A stretch of 64,000 nt of DNA from Nitrospirota bacterium (GTDB lineage: Bacteria; Nitrospirota; UBA9217), in the NCBI GenBank assembly GCA_963749655.1, contig CAVVOB010000038.1, positions 64,001 to 128,000 of the forward strand, written 5' to 3'. A program made the position numbers and the translations under genes. Below the pieces are notes generated by a model, which was given only the letters and a program-made list of their open reading frames with translations, had not been told where the DNA came from and made no database searches. Of this stretch, positions 4,469 to 12,052 are shown piece after piece. The stretch's first letter is position 1. Every line of letters starts with the position of its first letter.

Positions 4469-6226
4469 ATGAGAGACTGGAGAGCCCTGCTCGCGCGAAT
4501 GTTGCCCGCCGCAGGCTGGTGGCCGCAGGTGAACCAGCGAACGCTGAAGAGCGACCTGATGGCGGGCCTTACCGGCGCCATCATCGTCCTGCCGCAGGGC
4601 GTGGCCTTTGCCATCATTGCCGGCCTGCCGCCGGAGTACGGTCTCTATACCGCGATCGTCCCCGCCGTCATCGCCGCGCTTTTCGGCTCGTCCCATCACC
4701 TGGTCTCCGGTCCGACCACGGCCATTTCCATCGTGCTCTTCACGACCGTGAGTCCGCTGGTGCAGACCGGCACGACCACCTACATCGAATTGATCCTGAC
4801 CATTACGTTTCTGGCGGGCCTGTTTCAGTTTGCGCTCGGACTCGCGCGGCTCGGCGCGCTCGTGAACTTCGTGTCCCATTCCGTGGTGGTGGGGTTTACG
4901 GCCGGCGCCGCGCTCCTGATCGGCACGAGCCAGCTCAGCAATTTTCTCGGCGTTCCCGGCTCCAAGCGCCATGCCTTCATCCATGTCTGGGCCGACCTGC
5001 TTCAGCATGTTTCAAGCATCAATCCCGTTGTCCTGGCAATCTCCGCGACAACGCTCGTATTCGCGCTGCTCTTTAAGCGATTTCTGCCGAGGATGCCGGG
5101 CTTGCTCTTTGCCATGGTCATCGGCAGCCTGCTGTCGCTCGTTCTGAACGGAAAAGAACACGGAGTGCGCCTCGTGGGATCGCTGCCCGCACACCTGCCG
5201 CCGCTCTCGCTGCCCGATCTCTCGACGGCGAACATCCGCAGCCTCGCTCCGCCGGCGCTGGCAGTCGCCATGCTCGGCCTGGCAGAAGCGGTTTCCATCG
5301 CCCGCGCCGTCGGCACGAAGTCGCACCAGCGCATAGACAGCAACCAGGAGTTTATCGGTCAGGGCCTGGCGAACATGATCGGCAGCTTCTTTTCGAGCTA
5401 CGCATCGTCGGGCTCCTTCACCCGCACGGGTGTGAACTACGATGCCGGCGCGAAGACGCCCCTGGCCGCCGTGTTCGCGGCGGCGGCGCTCATGCTCATC
5501 CTGCTTTTGATCGCGCCGCTCACGGCTTACCTTCCGATCCCTGCCATGGCCGGCGTTCTGCTGCTCGTGGCCTGGAACCTCGTCGATTTCCACCACATCG
5601 CCACGATCATCCGGACGAGCCGCCAGGAGGCCGCGGTGCTTGCGGTGACCTTCGTTGCCACCCTGCTGGTGGAGCTGGAGTTCGCGATCTATGTCGGGGT
5701 CATGCTCTCGCTCCTGCTGTATCTGAACCGCACCTCTCATCCCGGGTTCGTGACGCTCGTGCCCGAACACCAGGACGATCACCAGCGCTTCATCAACATC
5801 GAACGGAAAAACCTGCCTGAATGTCCGCAGCTCAAGATCCTGCGCGTAGACGGCTCTCTTTTCTTCGGCGCGGTGAACCATTTTGCAGAAGAGCTGCGCA
5901 CCATAGCGAAGGAAAGCCCTGAGCAGGCCCATATCCTGATCGTGGGCGGAGGCATCAACTTCATCGATGTGGCCGGCTGCGAGACCCTTGCCAACGAGGC
6001 GCACCGCCTGCACATGGAGGGAAGGAAGCTTTACCTCTGCTCCCTGAAAGGCGAGGTGGTCGAAATGCTCCATAACGGAGGGTACATCGACCGCATCGGC
6101 GCAGAGAACATCCTCGGCTCCAAGAAGGCCGCAATCGCTGCGCTCGTTCCCCGTCTCGATCCGGAGCGGTGCCGGGTCTGCAGCCGCCGGGTGTTCGACG
6201 AGTGCCGGTTCATGCCCGGCGCGTGA
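4469..6226 (+). CDS. SulP/SLC26 anion transporter with STAS domain
   Basis: DLMAGLTGAIIVLPQGVAFA, GLYTAIVP, SSGSFTRT, STAS (GSLFFGAV...FIDVAG), C-terminal CxxC-x7-C. Confidence 0.93.
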   Translation: MRDWRALLARMLPAAGWWPQVNQRTLKSDLMAGLTGAIIVLPQGVAFAIIAGLPPEYGLYTAIVPAVIAALFGSSHHLVSGPTTAISIVLFTTVSPLVQTGTTTYIELILTITFLAGLFQFALGLARLGALVNFVSHSVVVGFTAGAALLIGTSQLSNFLGVPGSKRHAFIHVWADLLQHVSSINPVVLAISATTLVFALLFKRFLPRMPGLLFAMVIGSLLSLVLNGKEHGVRLVGSLPAHLPPLSLPDLSTANIRSLAPPALAVAMLGLAEAVSIARAVGTKSHQRIDSNQEFIGQGLANMIGSFFSSYASSGSFTRTGVNYDAGAKTPLAAVFAAAALMLILLLIAPLTAYLPIPAMAGVLLLVAWNLVDFHHIATIIRTSRQEAAVLAVTFVATLLVELEFAIYVGVMLSLLLYLNRTSHPGFVTLVPEHQDDHQRFINIERKNLPECPQLKILRVDGSLFFGAVNHFAEELRTIAKESPEQAHILIVGGGINFIDVAGCETLANEAHRLHMEGRKLYLCSLKGEVVEMLHNGGYIDRIGAENILGSKKAAIAALVPRLDPERCRVCSRRVFDECRFMPGA

Positions 6227-6303
6227 GCTGAAGAATGAGTCGTAGATGCCGCTGCCGGGCAATCCCGCGCCTTGGCATCCCCCGACTCCTGCCGGGGGTG
6301 GAA

Positions 6304-6460
6304 AGCGCTCACTCGCGCGTGACACGAACGTGTCACGCATGCGCGAGTTCGCAGTTCCACCTGGCACTCCGTGCATCCGCACTCGTAAACGCCGGGTGCA
6401 GGCGGGAGGTCGCTACGATTTAGAGTCCCGACAGGTCGGGATGCTGGAGGGGGCTCCACT
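6304..6460. repeat. Structured direct-repeat element, copy 1 (55-bp core 6304-6358)
   Basis: AGCGCTCACTCGCGCGTGACACGAACGTGTCACGCATGCGCGAGTTCGCAGTTCC identical to 7345-7399; shared CGGGAGGTCGC and GGAGGGGGCTCCACT blocks. Confidence 0.9.
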
Positions 6461-6467
6461 TCAATCC

Positions 6468-7223
6468 TTATTCAGCGAAACCGAACAGCACGCTCTGAAT
6501 GATCTTCGTACCTTTGATCATCTGTCCCGCGGTTAAGTACACTCCTCGAATTCTATGAGTCCTTTTTCGGTGCTCTCTGGCATGTTCTTCCGACCGGAAG
6601 AAGACCGTCTCCTTTCAAAATGCGTTGATGATGCTCTCGTCCTGCAGGGTCAGAAGATCCACGTCCGGAATGAAGACCATAGGCGCCCGGCCCCCGTCCT
6701 TGACCGTGAAATTGAGATCGCTGTCGATCGTCAATTCCATCGGCTCCTTGCAGTGAGCGCATTCGGTGCGCACCGTGACGGTGATCGGCTGGTTTCGTAA
6801 GCGCCCTTGCACGAAGGGCGTTGCAAATGCATCCGCTGCTCAGGCCGCGTACACCTGCTCGCCGGTGCTGAAGGTAAGGTGATGGGGGGTCTTATCCACG
6901 GTGACCGGGTATGCCCAGGTAACGGCTCCCTCCTTGTTCCTGAACAGGAAGGTCATGTGTTTCTCCAGGTCTTCCAGGAGGCGCACGACCCGGTCAGGGG
7001 GCAGGGACAGTTTTTGCGAAATGAGCCCGGGGCTTAATGGCTTTCCCGTGCGCGGCAGCTCCGCAACCACGAGATGGTGCACACGGCGATGGTCCGTTGT
7101 CATGAAGCCCATGGCTGCCTCAAAGCGCATCTTCTGGCGAAGGAGCTTCTTTTCCGGGTCCACGAGAGCGGACGGGATACTCAGCATGTACTTCCATAAT
7201 CCAAGCATGATTCGGTTCTTCAT
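6468..7223 (-). CDS. MerB-like organometallic lyase, probable double selenoprotein (251 aa; Sec128, Sec203)
   Basis: One frame from ATG 7223 (AAGGAGGT RBS) to TAA 6468 with TGA at 6840-6842 (VYAA-U-AADAF) and 6615-6617 (INAF-U-KETVFF); WAYPVT..TPH MerB-type segment; ECAHC; hairpins after both TGAs. Confidence 0.82.
6585..6602 (-). promoter_or_regulatory. Putative bacterial SECIS for Sec203
   Basis: UUCUUCC-GGUC-GGAAGAA hairpin starting 12 nt after UGA. Confidence 0.7.
6802..6820 (-). promoter_or_regulatory. Putative bacterial SECIS for Sec128
   Basis: CGCCCUU-CGUGC-AAGGGCG hairpin starting 19 nt after UGA. Confidence 0.62.
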
Positions 7224-7344
7224 TTGTACCTCCTTTGTGCAATGCAATCACGAAACTCTAATATCGAAATTCTAAACAAGGACAACTGCATGAGTCAAAG
7301 GCATCTCGCGCAAAGCCGCAAAGGGAATCCGGAATTGCCGTATG

Positions 7345-7453
7345 AGCGCTCACTCGCGCGTGACACGAACGTGTCACGCATGCGCGAGTTCGCAGTTCCG
7401 GGAGGTCGCGTTGTTCGAGGGAGCCTCCGGCTCCTGCCGGAGGGGGCTCCACT
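7345..7453. repeat. Structured direct-repeat element, copy 2
   Basis: Same 55-bp core and terminal blocks as 6304-6460 but lacking about 45 nt of internal sequence. Confidence 0.9.
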
Positions 7454-8007
7454 CATCCTGTTTGAAAAACCTGCTTCTCCCACCCTCGCCGCGAATACTT
7501 CCTGATGAGCGCGATCTCCCGGGCGGGAATGCCGAGGGATTCGAGAAAGTCCTGGTGCGCGTCGGGGGCGAGCCTCTCGAATTCTGCGTGCCATTTGTTC
7601 CTGGCAGCCTCGTCCAGCCCCGCGGTCTCCAGCAGCTTTATCCAACTCTCCTTGTCCATGACCCTGATCCGTGACAGGGCGCGATCGCTCTTGAGCAGGG
7701 TCACGATGAAATGCTGCTGGGTCCGGAGCGCGCGGATCTCCCGGCTCAGCTCATCGAGCCGCTTCTCGAGGAGCGGGACGATGCCCCGGTTGCCCCTCGT
7801 TTTCATAATCCTGTTGATGTCCTCGAGGGAGAGCCCGGTCCGGCGAAAGGTGCAGATCTGTTCCAGCCTGAGGCGGTCCGCTTCGGTGTACGTACGATAA
7901 TTTGCATTGCTTCTACCGGATGGCGAAAAAAGGCCGATCGAGTCATAGTAGAGCAGCGTGCTTCGGGATAGTCCGAATTGTTTTGCCAGCCGGCCGATGG
8001 TATACAC
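7453..8007 (-). CDS. MerR family transcriptional regulator
   Basis: GTG start after CAGGAGG; YTIGRLAKQFGLSRSTLLYYDSIGL...NYRTY HTH; C-terminal WHAEFERLAPDAHQDFLESLG. Confidence 0.92.
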   Translation of the reverse strand: MYTIGRLAKQFGLSRSTLLYYDSIGLFSPSGRSNANYRTYTEADRLRLEQICTFRRTGLSLEDINRIMKTRGNRGIVPLLEKRLDELSREIRALRTQQHFIVTLLKSDRALSRIRVMDKESWIKLLETAGLDEAARNKWHAEFERLAPDAHQDFLESLGIPAREIALIRKYSRRGWEKQVFQTG

Positions 8008-8031
8008 GGTTGCCTCCTGCACCTGGAGTCT

Positions 8032-8062
8032 AGCATAAACCATGAAGTAATAGACAGGTCAA
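8032..8062 (-). promoter_or_regulatory. MerR-type promoter with 19-bp spacer
   Basis: TTGACC-19 bp-TATGCT with imperfect ACC...GGT dyad over the spacer. Confidence 0.72.
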
Positions 8063-8213: not shown

Positions 8214-9104
8214 ATGTTCAAAAAGATCTCAGTTCTTGCGTTCTGCTTCTTCGTTCTTTCGCTGGCAGCGGTTGTTTCCTCGCCTGCCGCAGACCAGGCC
8301 TTGAAGCCCTATTTGCTCGGCTTCCGGGGACCCGCAACCATCGCAGCCAAACTGACCGATGTGAAGACGGCGCTGGCGCAGAAGGGTTTCCAGATCGTCG
8401 GCGAGTATGCGCCCTATACGGGCGCAACAGTGCTCGTGGTGACGAGTGATGCGCTCAAGGCTGCTGCGGCAAAGTCGGCATTCGGGGCCTATGGCGCAGT
8501 GATGCGCGTTTCGCTCACCAGCGTCGGCAGCGAGCTGCAGGTGGCTGCAACGAACCCGCGATACTTTGCAGCAGCATATCGGCTGAAGGAAGACCTGAAC
8601 GATGTTGCAACGGCGCTCGAACAGGCAATAGGCAAAACCGTCGAATTCGGCTCCAAGAACGGGATCACGGCAGCCCAGCTGAAGAAGTACCACTATATGG
8701 TGATGATGCCCTACTTTGACGACCAGGTAAAGCTCGCCGTGTACCCGTCCCAGGACGAGGCGCTTGCCGCCGTCGAGGCGGGGCTTGCGGCCAGGAAGGG
8801 CGGCGCGATCAAGGTATACCGCGTGGACCTGCCGGGAAAAAAGGAATCGGTCTTCGGCGCTTATTTGACCGAGGGCGCGGGTGCTGATGCCGCGATCATG
8901 AAGGTCATCGACATCGGCGAACTGAAGCATACGGCCCATTTGCCCTATGAGCTGGTCGTGTCCGACGGTACCGTGTACATGCTCCACGGCAAGTTCAGGA
9001 TCGCCCTCGATTTTCCGGACCTCACCATGGGCACGTTCATGAAGATCTCCGGAGCGCCGGCAGCCATCGAGGAGAAGCTCAAGGCGGCGGCAGGAGGGAA
9101 GTAG
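8214..9104 (+). CDS. Exported hypothetical protein
   Basis: Sec signal peptide, good RBS and codon usage, HYMVMMPYF and HTAHLPYE motifs. Confidence 0.7.
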   Translation: MFKKISVLAFCFFVLSLAAVVSSPAADQALKPYLLGFRGPATIAAKLTDVKTALAQKGFQIVGEYAPYTGATVLVVTSDALKAAAAKSAFGAYGAVMRVSLTSVGSELQVAATNPRYFAAAYRLKEDLNDVATALEQAIGKTVEFGSKNGITAAQLKKYHYMVMMPYFDDQVKLAVYPSQDEALAAVEAGLAARKGGAIKVYRVDLPGKKESVFGAYLTEGAGADAAIMKVIDIGELKHTAHLPYELVVSDGTVYMLHGKFRIALDFPDLTMGTFMKISGAPAAIEEKLKAAAGGK

Positions 9105-9290: not shown

Positions 9291-12052
9291 TCATTTAACC
9301 ACCGCCCCCAGATACTCCCTCAAATATTTCCCCGTATACGATTCCCCGATCTCTGCCACTTCTTCCGGCGTGCCCTGCGCCACGATCCTGCCGCCTGCTT
9401 CGCCTCCCTCGGGGCCGAGGTCGATGACCCAGTCCGCGGTCTTGATCACATCGAGGTTGTGCTCCACGACGACCACGGTGTTGCCCGCGTCCACGAGCGC
9501 GTTCAGCACCTGGAGCAGCTTTTTTACGTCGTCCATGTGGAGGCCTGTCGTGGGCTCGTCGAGGATGTAAACCATGTCGTACAATTTCGCGTCGCCCAGT
9601 TCGTGGGATATCTTGAGCCGCTGGCTTTCGCCGCCCGACAGGGTCGTTGCCGGCTGGCCGAGCCGCAGATACCCGAGCCCGACCGCGGCGAGCGACTGGA
9701 GCTTGTCCTTGATAGGCGACTGCCCTTCGAAGAACGTGAGGGCCTCGTTCACCGTCATCTGGAGCACGTCGGCGATGTTTCGGCCCTTGTAGTGTATCTT
9801 CAGTACCTCGGGCTTATAGCGCCTGCCTCCGCACTGTTCGCAGGTGACGAACATGTCCTCGAAGAAGTACATCTCGATCTTCTGCACGCCTGCGCCGTCG
9901 CAGGCCGCGCACCGTCCGCCTGCAACGTTGAAGGAGAAATGGCCGGGGCCGAACTTCTTGCGCTTCGCGTCCGGCAGGCCTGCAAAGAACTTACGGATGA
10001 GGTCAAAGGCCTTTACATAGGTAACAGGGTTCGAACGCGGCGTCTTGCCGATCGGTTCCTGGTCGATGAGCCGCACGCCCTTGATGTGCTCGAGGCCCAG
10101 GAGTTCCCCGTAGGCCCCCGGTTTTCCGAATTCGACGCCCAGTTCCCGCGCGAGGGCGGGGTAGAGCGTGTCCTGGACGAGCGTGGACTTGCCCGAGCCC
10201 GACACGCCGGTAATGCAGGTCAGGGTCTGGAGCGGAATGCGGACGTTGATCTTCTTCAAGTTGTTTCCCGACGCCGCGCGGACCTCCAGGAACTTGCGTT
10301 CCTGCTTTCGCCTCCTGGCAGGGACCGGGATCGTCTCCCTGCCGGAGAGGTACTTGGCCGTAAGGCAGGAACTGCGAAGGAATTCGCGCTGTGATCCTTC
10401 GAACACGACGCGACCTCCGCGTTCGCCTGCTCCCGGCCCCATTTCCACGACATGGTCGGCAGACCGGATGAGCGCGGGATCGTGCTCGACCATGAGCACC
10501 GTATTGCCCGATGCGGAGAGCTCGCGGATGATCCCGACCAACAGGTGCGTGTCGCGCGGGTGCAAGCCGATGCTCGGCTCATCGAGTACATACAGCGTGC
10601 CCATGAGCCTGAGCGCAAGCTGGTTCGAGAGATTCACCCGCTGGGCCTCTCCTCCTGAAAGCGTGCGCGTCTGCCGGTCGATCGTGAGGTATCCGAGGCC
10701 CACGCGGAGAAAGTAGGCCAGCTTCATTTCCAGCTGCCTCAGGATCTCCTTTGCCGCCTGCTTCTCGAATTCGGTCAAATCGAGATCGTGCAGCCATTGT
10801 ACGAGGTACGCAACCGGCGTGGCTGACGCCTGCGAGATATCGATCCCGCCGACCGTGACGATGAGCGCCTCGGGCTTGAGCCGTGTTCCCCGGCACACCG
10901 GGCAGATTGCGGCGCTGCGGTATCTGCTCAGGAACACCCGCACATGGAGCTTGTAGCGTTTGCCCTGGAGATACGCGAAAAAATCATCGATGCCGTGAAA
11001 GCTCCCGGTCCCCTTGAACAGCGCTTCCCGGTCGGACTTCGGCAGGTCCTGCCACGGAACATCCACGGCGATCCCGGCCTTCTTCGCGCCTGTGAGCACC
11101 TGGCGCATCCACCATTTCGACGATGCCTTGGTCCAGGGCTCGATCGCGCCCTGTTTCAGGCTCAGGTGCTTGTCGGGGACGATGAGGTCCTCGTCGTAAC
11201 GCAGGATATTGCCGAAGCCGTTGCACTCTTTGCATGCTCCGACAGGGTGATTAAAGGAAAAAAGAACGGGCTGCGGAGCCTCGTACACGGTCCCGCAGGA
11301 AGGGCACGCGAGCGCCTGGCTGAAGCGGATGGTCTTTTCCCCCAGGACCTCGACAAGGACCTCGCCCTTGCCCTCCCGGAGCGCGGTCTCCAGGGACTCG
11401 ACAAGCCGCGCGCGGGAATCAGGCGTGACCACAAGACGATCCAGCAGCACGAGCAGTTCGGTAAGGTCCTTCTTCCCCGAATCGACTGCCGAGGTCTCGA
11501 CGATCTCCTCGTCCCAGCTTGAGCCTGCCGAAGCCCCTGCTCTGGAGCTCCATCAAAAGCGCGCCCGGGCCGTCCGCGGGAACGGGGATCCGGAACAGAA
11601 CGTAGATCCTTTTTTCCGAGGTGGTCGCGCAGAAGATCGTCGGCGATCGACGAGGGATGGGAGCGCTTTACCTCAGTCCCGTCTTTCGGACAGACGATCT
11701 TTCCGATCTTGGCGAAGAGGAGCCGAAGGTAGTCGTAGACTTCCGACACGGTGCCGACGGTGGAGCGGGACGTCCTGACCGGATTTCGCTGCTCCAGCGC
11801 AACAGCAGGACGCACGTTCCGGAGCTCGTCCACGTCAGGTCGGTCCAGCTTTTCGAGGAACATCTGTGCGTACGTGGACAGGGACTCGATGTAGCGCCAC
11901 TGCCCCTCGGCAAAGACCGTGTCAAAGGCCAGCGAGGACTTGCCCGAGCCGGACAGCCCGGTGACCACGGTCACGGCATCGTGGGGGATCGCGAGGCTCA
12001 CGTTCTTGAGGTTGTTCTGGCGGGCGCCTTGTATGATGAGTTCGGACTTCAT
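9291..12052 (-). CDS. uvrA: Excinuclease ABC subunit UvrA (frameshifted at about 11.5-11.6 kb)
   Basis: [48 protein letters not shown] and Zn fingers, split over ORFs 11162-12052 and 9291-11450. Confidence 0.9.

Follow-up and report, generated by a model that had tools for sequence, protein, structure and literature searches.

A 64,000-nucleotide stretch of a Nitrospirota genome (assembly GCA_963749655.1, contig CAVVOB010000038.1, positions 64,001 to 128,000; hereafter the window) carries, on its minus strand, a gene that almost certainly encodes a selenoprotein with two predicted selenocysteine (Sec) residues. The product resembles the organomercurial lyase MerB, and two in-frame UGA codons stand where MerB has its catalytic cysteines. 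By analogy with MerB, the protein is probably a carbon-metal(loid) lyase. The gene and its expression signals are located as follows.

6468..7223, minus strand: coding sequence (CDS) of the 251-residue MerB-like selenoprotein, two UGA codons read through; ATG at 7223-7221, TAA at 6470-6468
6840..6842, minus strand: UGA codon 128, proposed Sec, aligned to MerB catalytic Cys96
6615..6617, minus strand: UGA codon 203, proposed Sec, aligned to MerB catalytic Cys159
6831..6833, minus strand: Asp131 codon, counterpart of Asp99 (the MerB proton donor) in the alignment to MerB from the PDB
7229..7235, minus strand: ribosome-binding site AAGGAGG, strong, 5 nt 5' of the ATG
7269..7298, minus strand: promoter-like TTGACT-18 nt-TAGAAT, 10 of 12 consensus matches, about 46 nt before the ATG; a match to consensus only

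The frame of 251 codons that opens at the ATG at 7223 is interrupted only by the TGAs at codons 128 and 203. A mechanical list of open reading frames (ORFs) cuts it into 6840-7247 and 6615-6812, both on the minus strand. The 48-codon tail past the second TGA has no start codon, so it is not called at all. The initial annotation had placed the two ORFs and the uncalled tail in one frame ending at the TAA at 6468, with the UGA contexts VYAA-U-AADAF (site 1) and INAF-U-KETVFF (site 2). Translation of the frame agrees with it on both counts.

Cysteine was substituted for Sec in the read-through product for profile searches. The product matches the Pfam family MerB (PF03243) over residues 109-236 with 59.6 bits (E 3.9e-16; cut-off 27), and this match spans both TGA codons. 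The window is part of contig C38 of a genome of 4.27 Mb, in 39 contigs, which is 86.6% complete. A PF03243 search of that genome also finds the gene, above the cut-off at 42.9 bits and with a match that contains two TGAs; no second MerB-family gene was found there. In a sequence search of the PDB, MerB chains are the only matches under E 0.01. Alignment to MerB (1s6l and 3f2g) places U128 at Cys96 (YAWCALD), D131 at Asp99 and U203 at Cys159 (SFCCHVHFF), and D131 is invariant in all 81 aligned sequences and is likewise invariant in the sets A1 and A2. AlphaFold2, given a 36-row alignment, returns a model with a mean predicted local distance difference test score (pLDDT) of 82.7 and a predicted TM-score of 0.83; pLDDT falls below 50 at residues 1-21 only. 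When this model, which is a prediction and not a solved structure, is compared with the PDB by Foldseek, all 11 matches at E 0.001 or less are MerB or MerB2 (E 3.7e-12 to 1.1e-7, TM(target) 0.64-0.79); the next-best match has E 0.12. The profile match and the predicted structure thus support a MerB fold. The MerB-like identity given in the initial annotation is confirmed by these searches, as is its placement of both TGAs at the catalytic thiol sites.

The protein is nonetheless not a conventional MerB. The two share a fold (PF03243; PDB 1S6L, 3F0P), and the position of the buried Cys117 of MerB is also a cysteine here (C155). However, identity is only about 20%, both catalytic cysteines are replaced by TGA (presumptive Sec), the N-terminus is about 40 residues longer, and a C155-x2-C158 knuckle is nearly invariant. 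No mer operon was found in the 86.6%-complete genome, and the NCBIfam MerB equivalog models are missed (49.4 bits against a cut-off of 193 for NF033555, and 42.3 against 200 for NF009710). In NCBIfam release 20, no model reaches its cut-off for the protein. Christakis et al. (2021) define MerB by Cys96, Asp99, Cys159 and Cys117, and the available portion of their text does not mention selenocysteine (PMC8261052). Of the Cys96/Asp99/Cys159 signature, the lyase gene retains the Asp codon (D131), and both Cys codons are TGA. The knuckle (C155, H157 and C158; codons 155-158, 6750-6761) lies at the place of the buried Cys117; the MerB fold itself is described, in the part of the source available, as a duplicated treble-clef zinc finger (PMC4999995).

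The two TGAs are conserved wherever relatives can be read. A six-frame search of 401 genomes of Nitrospirota gives six orthologs (61-79% identity) from four genera of the same family, and each has exactly two TGAs within the match, at the same two columns. Pattern searches over 185,579 species genomes give 573 stretches, 438 of which encode a relative. The best 80 of the 438 are all metagenome-assembled genomes (MAGs), and every one of them has both TGAs (75 recognised by motif, 5 by eye). These MAGs are labelled Nitrospirota, Syntrophales/Smithellaceae, Desulfomonilaceae, Desulfobacterales, Desulfatiglandales, Chloroflexi/Anaerolineaceae, Omnitrophota, Abyssobacteria and others. A metagenome scan seeded by a divergent subfamily gives 421 stretches, 156 encoding relatives. 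Among the best 80 of these, TGA is present at site 1 in 76/76 and at site 2 in 70/70 where the site is in view; four loci lack the motif or end earlier, and six more end ahead of site 2. In an alignment of 81 sequences, both sites are TGA in 81/81. In all the DNA of relatives that was read, neither site shows TGC, TGT, TGG or any codon but TGA, and no Cys/Cys form of the two-Sec family was seen among more than 230 loci. The lyase gene belongs to a large and widespread family of oxygen-free habitats and is not a one-off.

Alternation between Cys and TGA, which the initial annotation had proposed as a check, is present in part: cysteine occupies both sites in distant relatives, namely MerB itself and the paralogs described below (L028-L040), but the close family has TGA throughout. 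The earlier argument that indel errors poorly explain two TGAs stands, given the same codons in 6/6, 80/80, 76/76 and 70/70 relatives. Metagenome contigs over 6840-6842 and 6615-6617 show no difference there; this is weak evidence, from fragments of relatives of another strain and not from raw reads of this organism. Three metagenome runs contain 4-8% of the sampled sequence words, as contigs.

Some metagenome members of the family carry a twin-arginine translocation (Tat) type signal (RRTFLKIAG...) before the conserved N-terminus (L130, L131, L133, L134, L138 and L140), and shortened forms occur in L135-L137. TGA is still found at both sites in these members, which may, to judge from the signal, be exported to the periplasm. 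No Tat signal was found among the 80 genome loci. A Tat regular expression has 11 matches in the metagenome set; two of them, L141 and L189, were rejected as false positives within the mature N-terminus.

Each UGA is followed by a short hairpin of the kind expected of a bacterial selenocysteine insertion sequence (SECIS).

6802..6820, minus strand: SECIS-like hairpin 1, CGCCCTT-CGTGC-AAGGGCG, 7 bp; loop G 28 nt past the UGA
6581..6606, minus strand: SECIS-like hairpin 2, stem TTCTTCC-GGTC-GGAAGAA (6602-6585) plus a 3-bp lower stem

In hairpin 2, the G residues of the loop lie 20-21 nt past the second UGA; we take these distances (28 and 20-21 nt) to be inside the range of published bacterial SECIS models. 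Synonymous codon choice is frozen in both hairpins. Across the 81 sequences, codon entropy is 0.37 bits in hairpin 1 (7 columns, residues 134-141) and 0.45 bits in hairpin 2 (6 columns, residues 207-213), against 1.44 bits elsewhere, the baseline being 87 conserved-residue columns outside the two post-UGA regions. In hairpin 1, P136 is CCC in 80/81, and F137 (TTC), V138 (GTG) and G140 (GGG) each use a single codon in 81/81; outside it, P106, V107 and G121 each use all four codons. In hairpin 2, F208 and F209 are TTC and E212 is GAA, each in 81/81. Elsewhere F118 is TTC in 51 sequences and TTT in 28, and E122 is GAG in 44 and GAA in 35.

RNAalifold recovers both hairpins. Pairing is possible in 94.0% of cells for hairpin 1 (33-59% with slid partners) and in 98.3% for hairpin 2 (40-62% with slid partners). 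The sixth pair of hairpin 1 is GC in 64 sequences, UA in 5 and other in 9. The closing pair of hairpin 2 is UA in 67, CG in 9, UG in 3 and other in 1; in this change, a shift between Arg and Trp codons is matched by a synonymous Ser shift. The initial annotation had described a perfect 7-bp hairpin after each UGA. Both are present in the window, but the outermost (seventh) pair of hairpin 1 is CG in only 53 of 78 distinct sequences and unpaired in 24, so that the conserved stem is 5-6 bp.

Two results tell against reading the hairpins as SECIS elements. Most stem pairs are invariant, with changes on both sides in one or two pairs, and covariation support is modest; since most pairs never vary, the frozen synonymous sites are the strongest argument for a SECIS, above covariation. 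In addition, no Rfam family reaches its gathering score anywhere in the window, and the hairpins are unmatched. A permissive Rfam scan of 6400-7300 gives a chance snoRNA match only (E 5.6), and the Rfam result is neither for nor against the hairpins. Like the bacterial SECIS of E. coli fdhF, each is a short hairpin within the CDS, right after the UGA, with a G in the apical loop; unlike fdhF-type elements, there are two separate ones in one short mRNA, and neither has an Rfam match. The GGUC loop of hairpin 2 presumably resembles that of fdhF. Conserved SECIS-like hairpins after both UGAs are supported by the alignment.

The sequence past each TGA is under coding selection. Pairwise differences by codon position were compared among the seven Nitrospirota orthologs.

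Segment before U128: position 1, 0.25; position 2, 0.15; position 3, 0.50
Segment between U128 and U203: position 1, 0.14; position 2, 0.15; position 3, 0.42
Segment after U203: position 1, 0.26; position 2, 0.20; position 3, 0.44

Differences at third positions predominate in all three segments, after U203 too, and therefore the last 48 codons evolve as coding sequence. Conservation of this tail had been set beforehand as a test, and the excess (0.44 against 0.26 and 0.20) answers it in favour of the long frame. The C-terminal motif ...QS.LFGF is conserved across phyla.

The host genome has the machinery to insert Sec. A tRNA-Sec gene is found on contig C39 (62.8 bits, anticodon TCA; ARAGORN agrees), together with selA (611 bits) and selB (367.5 bits). 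The selD gene is on contig C21 (355.5 bits) and has one in-frame TGA inside. All four of the genes selA, selB, selC and selD, for which a search had been suggested, are thus present. In the other genomes carrying the lyase gene, selB is over its cut-off in 5/5. The in-frame TGA of selD (G000:C21:1685-2611, L019) indicates that selenophosphate synthetase is itself a selenoprotein here. No tRNA genes were found inside the 64-kb window.

The closest described counterpart is SaoL, a MerB-like selenoprotein whose one Sec lies in the motif CU at the Cys159 site and whose Cys96 site keeps its Cys; its gene belongs to the nine-gene SAO locus, according to the part of the preprint available (Haft and Gwadz, bioRxiv 10.1101/2022.07.06.499078). 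Like SaoL, the protein described here is a MerB-fold selenoprotein of anaerobes with a predicted Sec at the Cys159 site, and gene callers truncate it at UGA. Unlike SaoL, as far as that text describes it, it has predicted Sec at both sites and an F-U-K context with no adjoining Cys. There are also no SAO transporter or neighbourhood genes among its neighbours, and no transporter, reductase or sao-type gene recurs as a neighbour in 81 loci; individual Sao models were not part of this search. Against the SaoL model NF040728, the lyase scores 38.1 bits (cut-off 140), whereas a true SaoL, L039, reaches 155.5 bits as a positive control. The model is thus able to recognise SaoL, and the lyase here is not SaoL. 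L039 (G226:C15) is a CU-motif SaoL in another Nitrospirota family and lies just 3' of an in-frame ORF with a YdjY domain.

Selenoproteome reviews of 2022 and 2026 list under MerB, in the portions available, only the SaoL-type family with the motif CU and one Sec, and give a small subset of 119 selenoprotein families as having two or three Sec (PMC9312934, PMC13188914). No two-Sec MerB relative was found in the open full-text literature, a scope outside which supplements and subscription journals fall. We regard the lyase family as a large clade of its own among MerB-fold selenoproteins, in which both metal ligands would be selenium.

The nearest relative in the same genus and family is a paralog that combines a thioredoxin-like and a MerB-like domain (L028-L037 and L040; 26-32% identity). 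Its MerB domain scores 108.9 bits, but it has Cys at both catalytic sites and an extra N-terminal domain, joined in frame via one TGA with a hairpin of its own. In L030 (1099-2082), for example, the thioredoxin-like domain, a TGA ('GFS-U-RMF') and the MerB-like domain follow one another in one frame. The thioredoxin-like domain scores 45.6 bits against NF049942, 'DF family (seleno)protein', under the cut-off of 70. The TGA is followed by a conserved hairpin, CGAGUC-loop-GACUCG, with a compensatory change in L036. Instead of two genes, the paralog may be a single fused selenoprotein, of a third type. No copy of it turned up in the genome of the window itself.

Directly upstream of the lyase gene is a regulator gene.

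7453..8043, minus strand: MerR-family regulator, 196 aa; Pfam MerR_1, 58.1 bits

The regulator has a single Cys, and its C-terminal half matches no known family. The same regulator is upstream in 5/6 ortholog loci (69-82% identity); L027 retains only residues 12-69, the helix-turn-helix. By clustering of upstream neighbours in 81 loci, a MerR-like regulator is present in 23/81. When the longest upstream ORF of 75 loci was compared with Pfam, it proved to be MerR in 20, MarR in 15, MFS in 4 and others in 3 or fewer. The gene had been described as standing alone, with no merA, merT or sao genes nearby. None of these was found, but the adjoining regulator means that the gene is not entirely on its own.

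The following mechanism is proposed. SelB and Sec-tRNA(Sec) would decode both in-frame UGAs as Sec, each UGA being served by a short SECIS hairpin of its own within the CDS, 13-20 nt further on, to give one 251-residue cytoplasmic MerB-fold protein. U128, U203 and Asp131 would take the places of MerB Cys96, Cys159 and Asp99 and would form an active site of a diselenolate and a carboxylic acid. In MerB, two thiolates bind Hg and Asp99 protonates the leaving carbon. Because this mechanism is established and the residues match, diselenolate protonolysis is proposed by extension: two selenolates would bind the metal of an organometal(loid), and Asp131 would protonate the leaving carbon, breaking the carbon-metal(loid) bond. 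The adjacent MerR-type regulator would probably switch the gene on, in what would be a compact module by which an anaerobe copes with stress or detoxifies. A two-Sec MerB-fold protein carrying out organometal(loid) protonolysis is the best explanation of the data as a whole, and we hold it with somewhat more belief than doubt. By homology, an organomercurial such as methylmercury would be the first candidate substrate; organomercurials as the physiological substrate are plausible, although we lean against them.

Several observations weigh against mercury. The upstream regulator, with its single Cys, is far under the NCBIfam cut-offs for the metal sensors MerR, CueR and ZntR (37.6 bits, where the MerR equivalog requires 150.85). 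A MarR-like regulator replaces MerR in 18/81 loci, and about 40/81 have no regulator cluster that could be seen. In the host genome, 86.6% complete, no MerA is over its cut-off (best 406 bits against 454) and a search for MerT has no match; no protein is therefore apparent that could relieve the enzyme of Hg(II). Mercury and selenium bond very strongly, and release of the product could be slow. Together, the lack of MerA and MerT, the regulators of non-metal type and the strength of the Hg-Se bond give considerable room to other metal(loid)s or to a trapping role. A six-frame search of the genome for HgcA with a cap-helix motif gives no match, which, at this completeness, is not evidence of absence.

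The strongest alternative accordingly accepts a genuine two-Sec MerB-fold selenoprotein, but one which is not an organomercurial lyase. It might cleave carbon bonds to another metal(loid) (As, Sn, Pb, Sb, Bi or Te), act as a trap or chaperone that binds metal(loid)s with high affinity without turnover, or work as a selenol/diselenide redox couple. Beyond the points just given, it draws on the wide margin by which the MerB equivalog cut-offs are missed, and on the absence of a Cys/Cys form from all the loci, which suggests that Sec is indispensable for some demanding chemistry. For SaoL, Haft and Gwadz contend that Sec at the metal site makes substrates other than mercury plausible (bioRxiv 10.1101/2022.07.06.499078). 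On the other hand, the MerB triad of two chalcogenolates and an Asp appears to be kept, judging from the aligned residues. The invariance of D131 fits protonolysis better than simple binding, which counts against the trap, and the neighbours point to no alternative substrate. This alternative is a serious one, but it is given distinctly less credence than organometal(loid) protonolysis.

A much weaker explanation is that TGA encodes Trp or Gly (code 4 or 25), or that the frame is really three separate small proteins. It owes its interest to the protein database, where the MerB-like protein has 109 matches and W is printed at site 1 in 26 of them. Of 25 retrieved longer proteins, 21 have W at both sites and one has W and then ends. 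P0035 and P0097 carry Cys at site 1, then stop directly ahead of site 2. Among 17 retrieved short proteins, 15 stop exactly at ...[Y/H/N]AA, the residue preceding site 1. None of the 26 W-printing proteins was mapped to contigs under table 4; most probably, the W letters stem from gene calling under code 4 on short contigs. In one protein, P0017, the two sites hold G and L, which fits the two-Sec reading poorly. TGA is the commonest stop in the host genome and ends 960 of 1941 ORFs of at least 300 aa, and therefore TGA is not reassigned in the host. TGG is never seen at either site in DNA, and both sites are catalytic Cys positions of MerB. The carrier phyla (Nitrospirota, Desulfobacterota, Chloroflexi and others) presumably use the standard code. 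As for three proteins, the 48-codon tail has no start codon and the MerB domain spans both TGAs. Reassignment or a split into three is thus very improbable.

Least probable of all, to the point of being negligible, is a pseudogene or an error of sequencing or assembly, a merB-like gene in decay that has picked up two nonsense mutations: there are two in-frame stops, gene callers split the frame and the N-terminus of one ortholog (L027) is broken, but the same two TGAs recur in 6/6, 80/80 and 76/76 / 70/70 independent loci from several phyla, purifying selection and conserved hairpins extend past both stops, and metagenome contigs of relatives that cover the sites show no difference there. The disrupted ortholog nevertheless counts against the two-Sec reading. 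L027 (G024:C138) keeps both TGAs and the C-terminal 195 residues, and its first 55 or so codons are out of frame; the loss could be due to deletion, rearrangement or an assembly fault.

Other features surround the two-Sec lyase gene in the window. A SulP-family permease with a STAS domain is encoded at 4469-6226 (plus strand) and a UvrA-like ABC ATPase at 9291-11450 (minus strand). Between the regulator and the ATPase, 8214-9104 (plus strand) encodes 296 residues with a signal-like N-terminus and no family match. The SulP transporter, the UvrA-like protein, a flavin reductase and other neighbours were considered as partners and rejected, because they are not conserved beside the gene elsewhere. 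Copies of a dispersed repeat lie on both sides of the lyase gene.

7345..7399: 55-nt core of the dispersed repeat, copy 1, between the regulator and lyase genes; not part of the proposed function
6304..6358: 55-nt core, identical copy 2, inside an element of about 200 bp downstream of the gene (about 6259-6460)

The 229-bp spacer between regulator and lyase holds a partial copy of the repeat. The core contains an internal palindrome and has 34 blastn matches in the genome, mostly 96-100% identical. The flanking direct repeats were considered as the ends of a mobile cassette around the gene; this was rejected, as the element is found genome-wide.

To our knowledge, MerB is the only enzyme known to cleave the C-Hg bond of methylmercury, and two cysteines are at the core of its mechanism. 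Replacement of both by Sec, with no Cys form in the loci read, points to a chemistry that thiols do insufficiently. The carriers (Syntrophales, Desulfobacterota and Nitrospirota) belong to anaerobic guilds of habitats where methylmercury and other methylated metal(loid)s arise. MerB surveys that require Cys96 and Cys159, as in the available text of PMC8261052, miss the members of the two-Sec family because gene calls break off at the first UGA. In databases they appear as 'hypothetical protein' fragments some 130-150 residues long, and annotation pipelines gain a rule to repair several hundred split genes. The natural two-SECIS mRNA offers a system for the study of repeated Sec insertion, and the two-Sec lyase a defined enzyme for anoxic demethylation assays.

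A broader proposal is made tentatively, and we consider it rather unlikely: the family would be an obligate diselenolate enzyme of anaerobes (Syntrophales, other Desulfobacterota, Nitrospirota and some Chloroflexi) for carbon-metal(loid) cleavage outside mer operons, with some members exported by the Tat system. If true, it would be a candidate for the missing agent of mer-independent methylmercury demethylation in anoxic sediments, or it would be an oxygen-independent C-As, C-Sn or C-Pb lyase, and merB surveys would have overlooked the family entirely.

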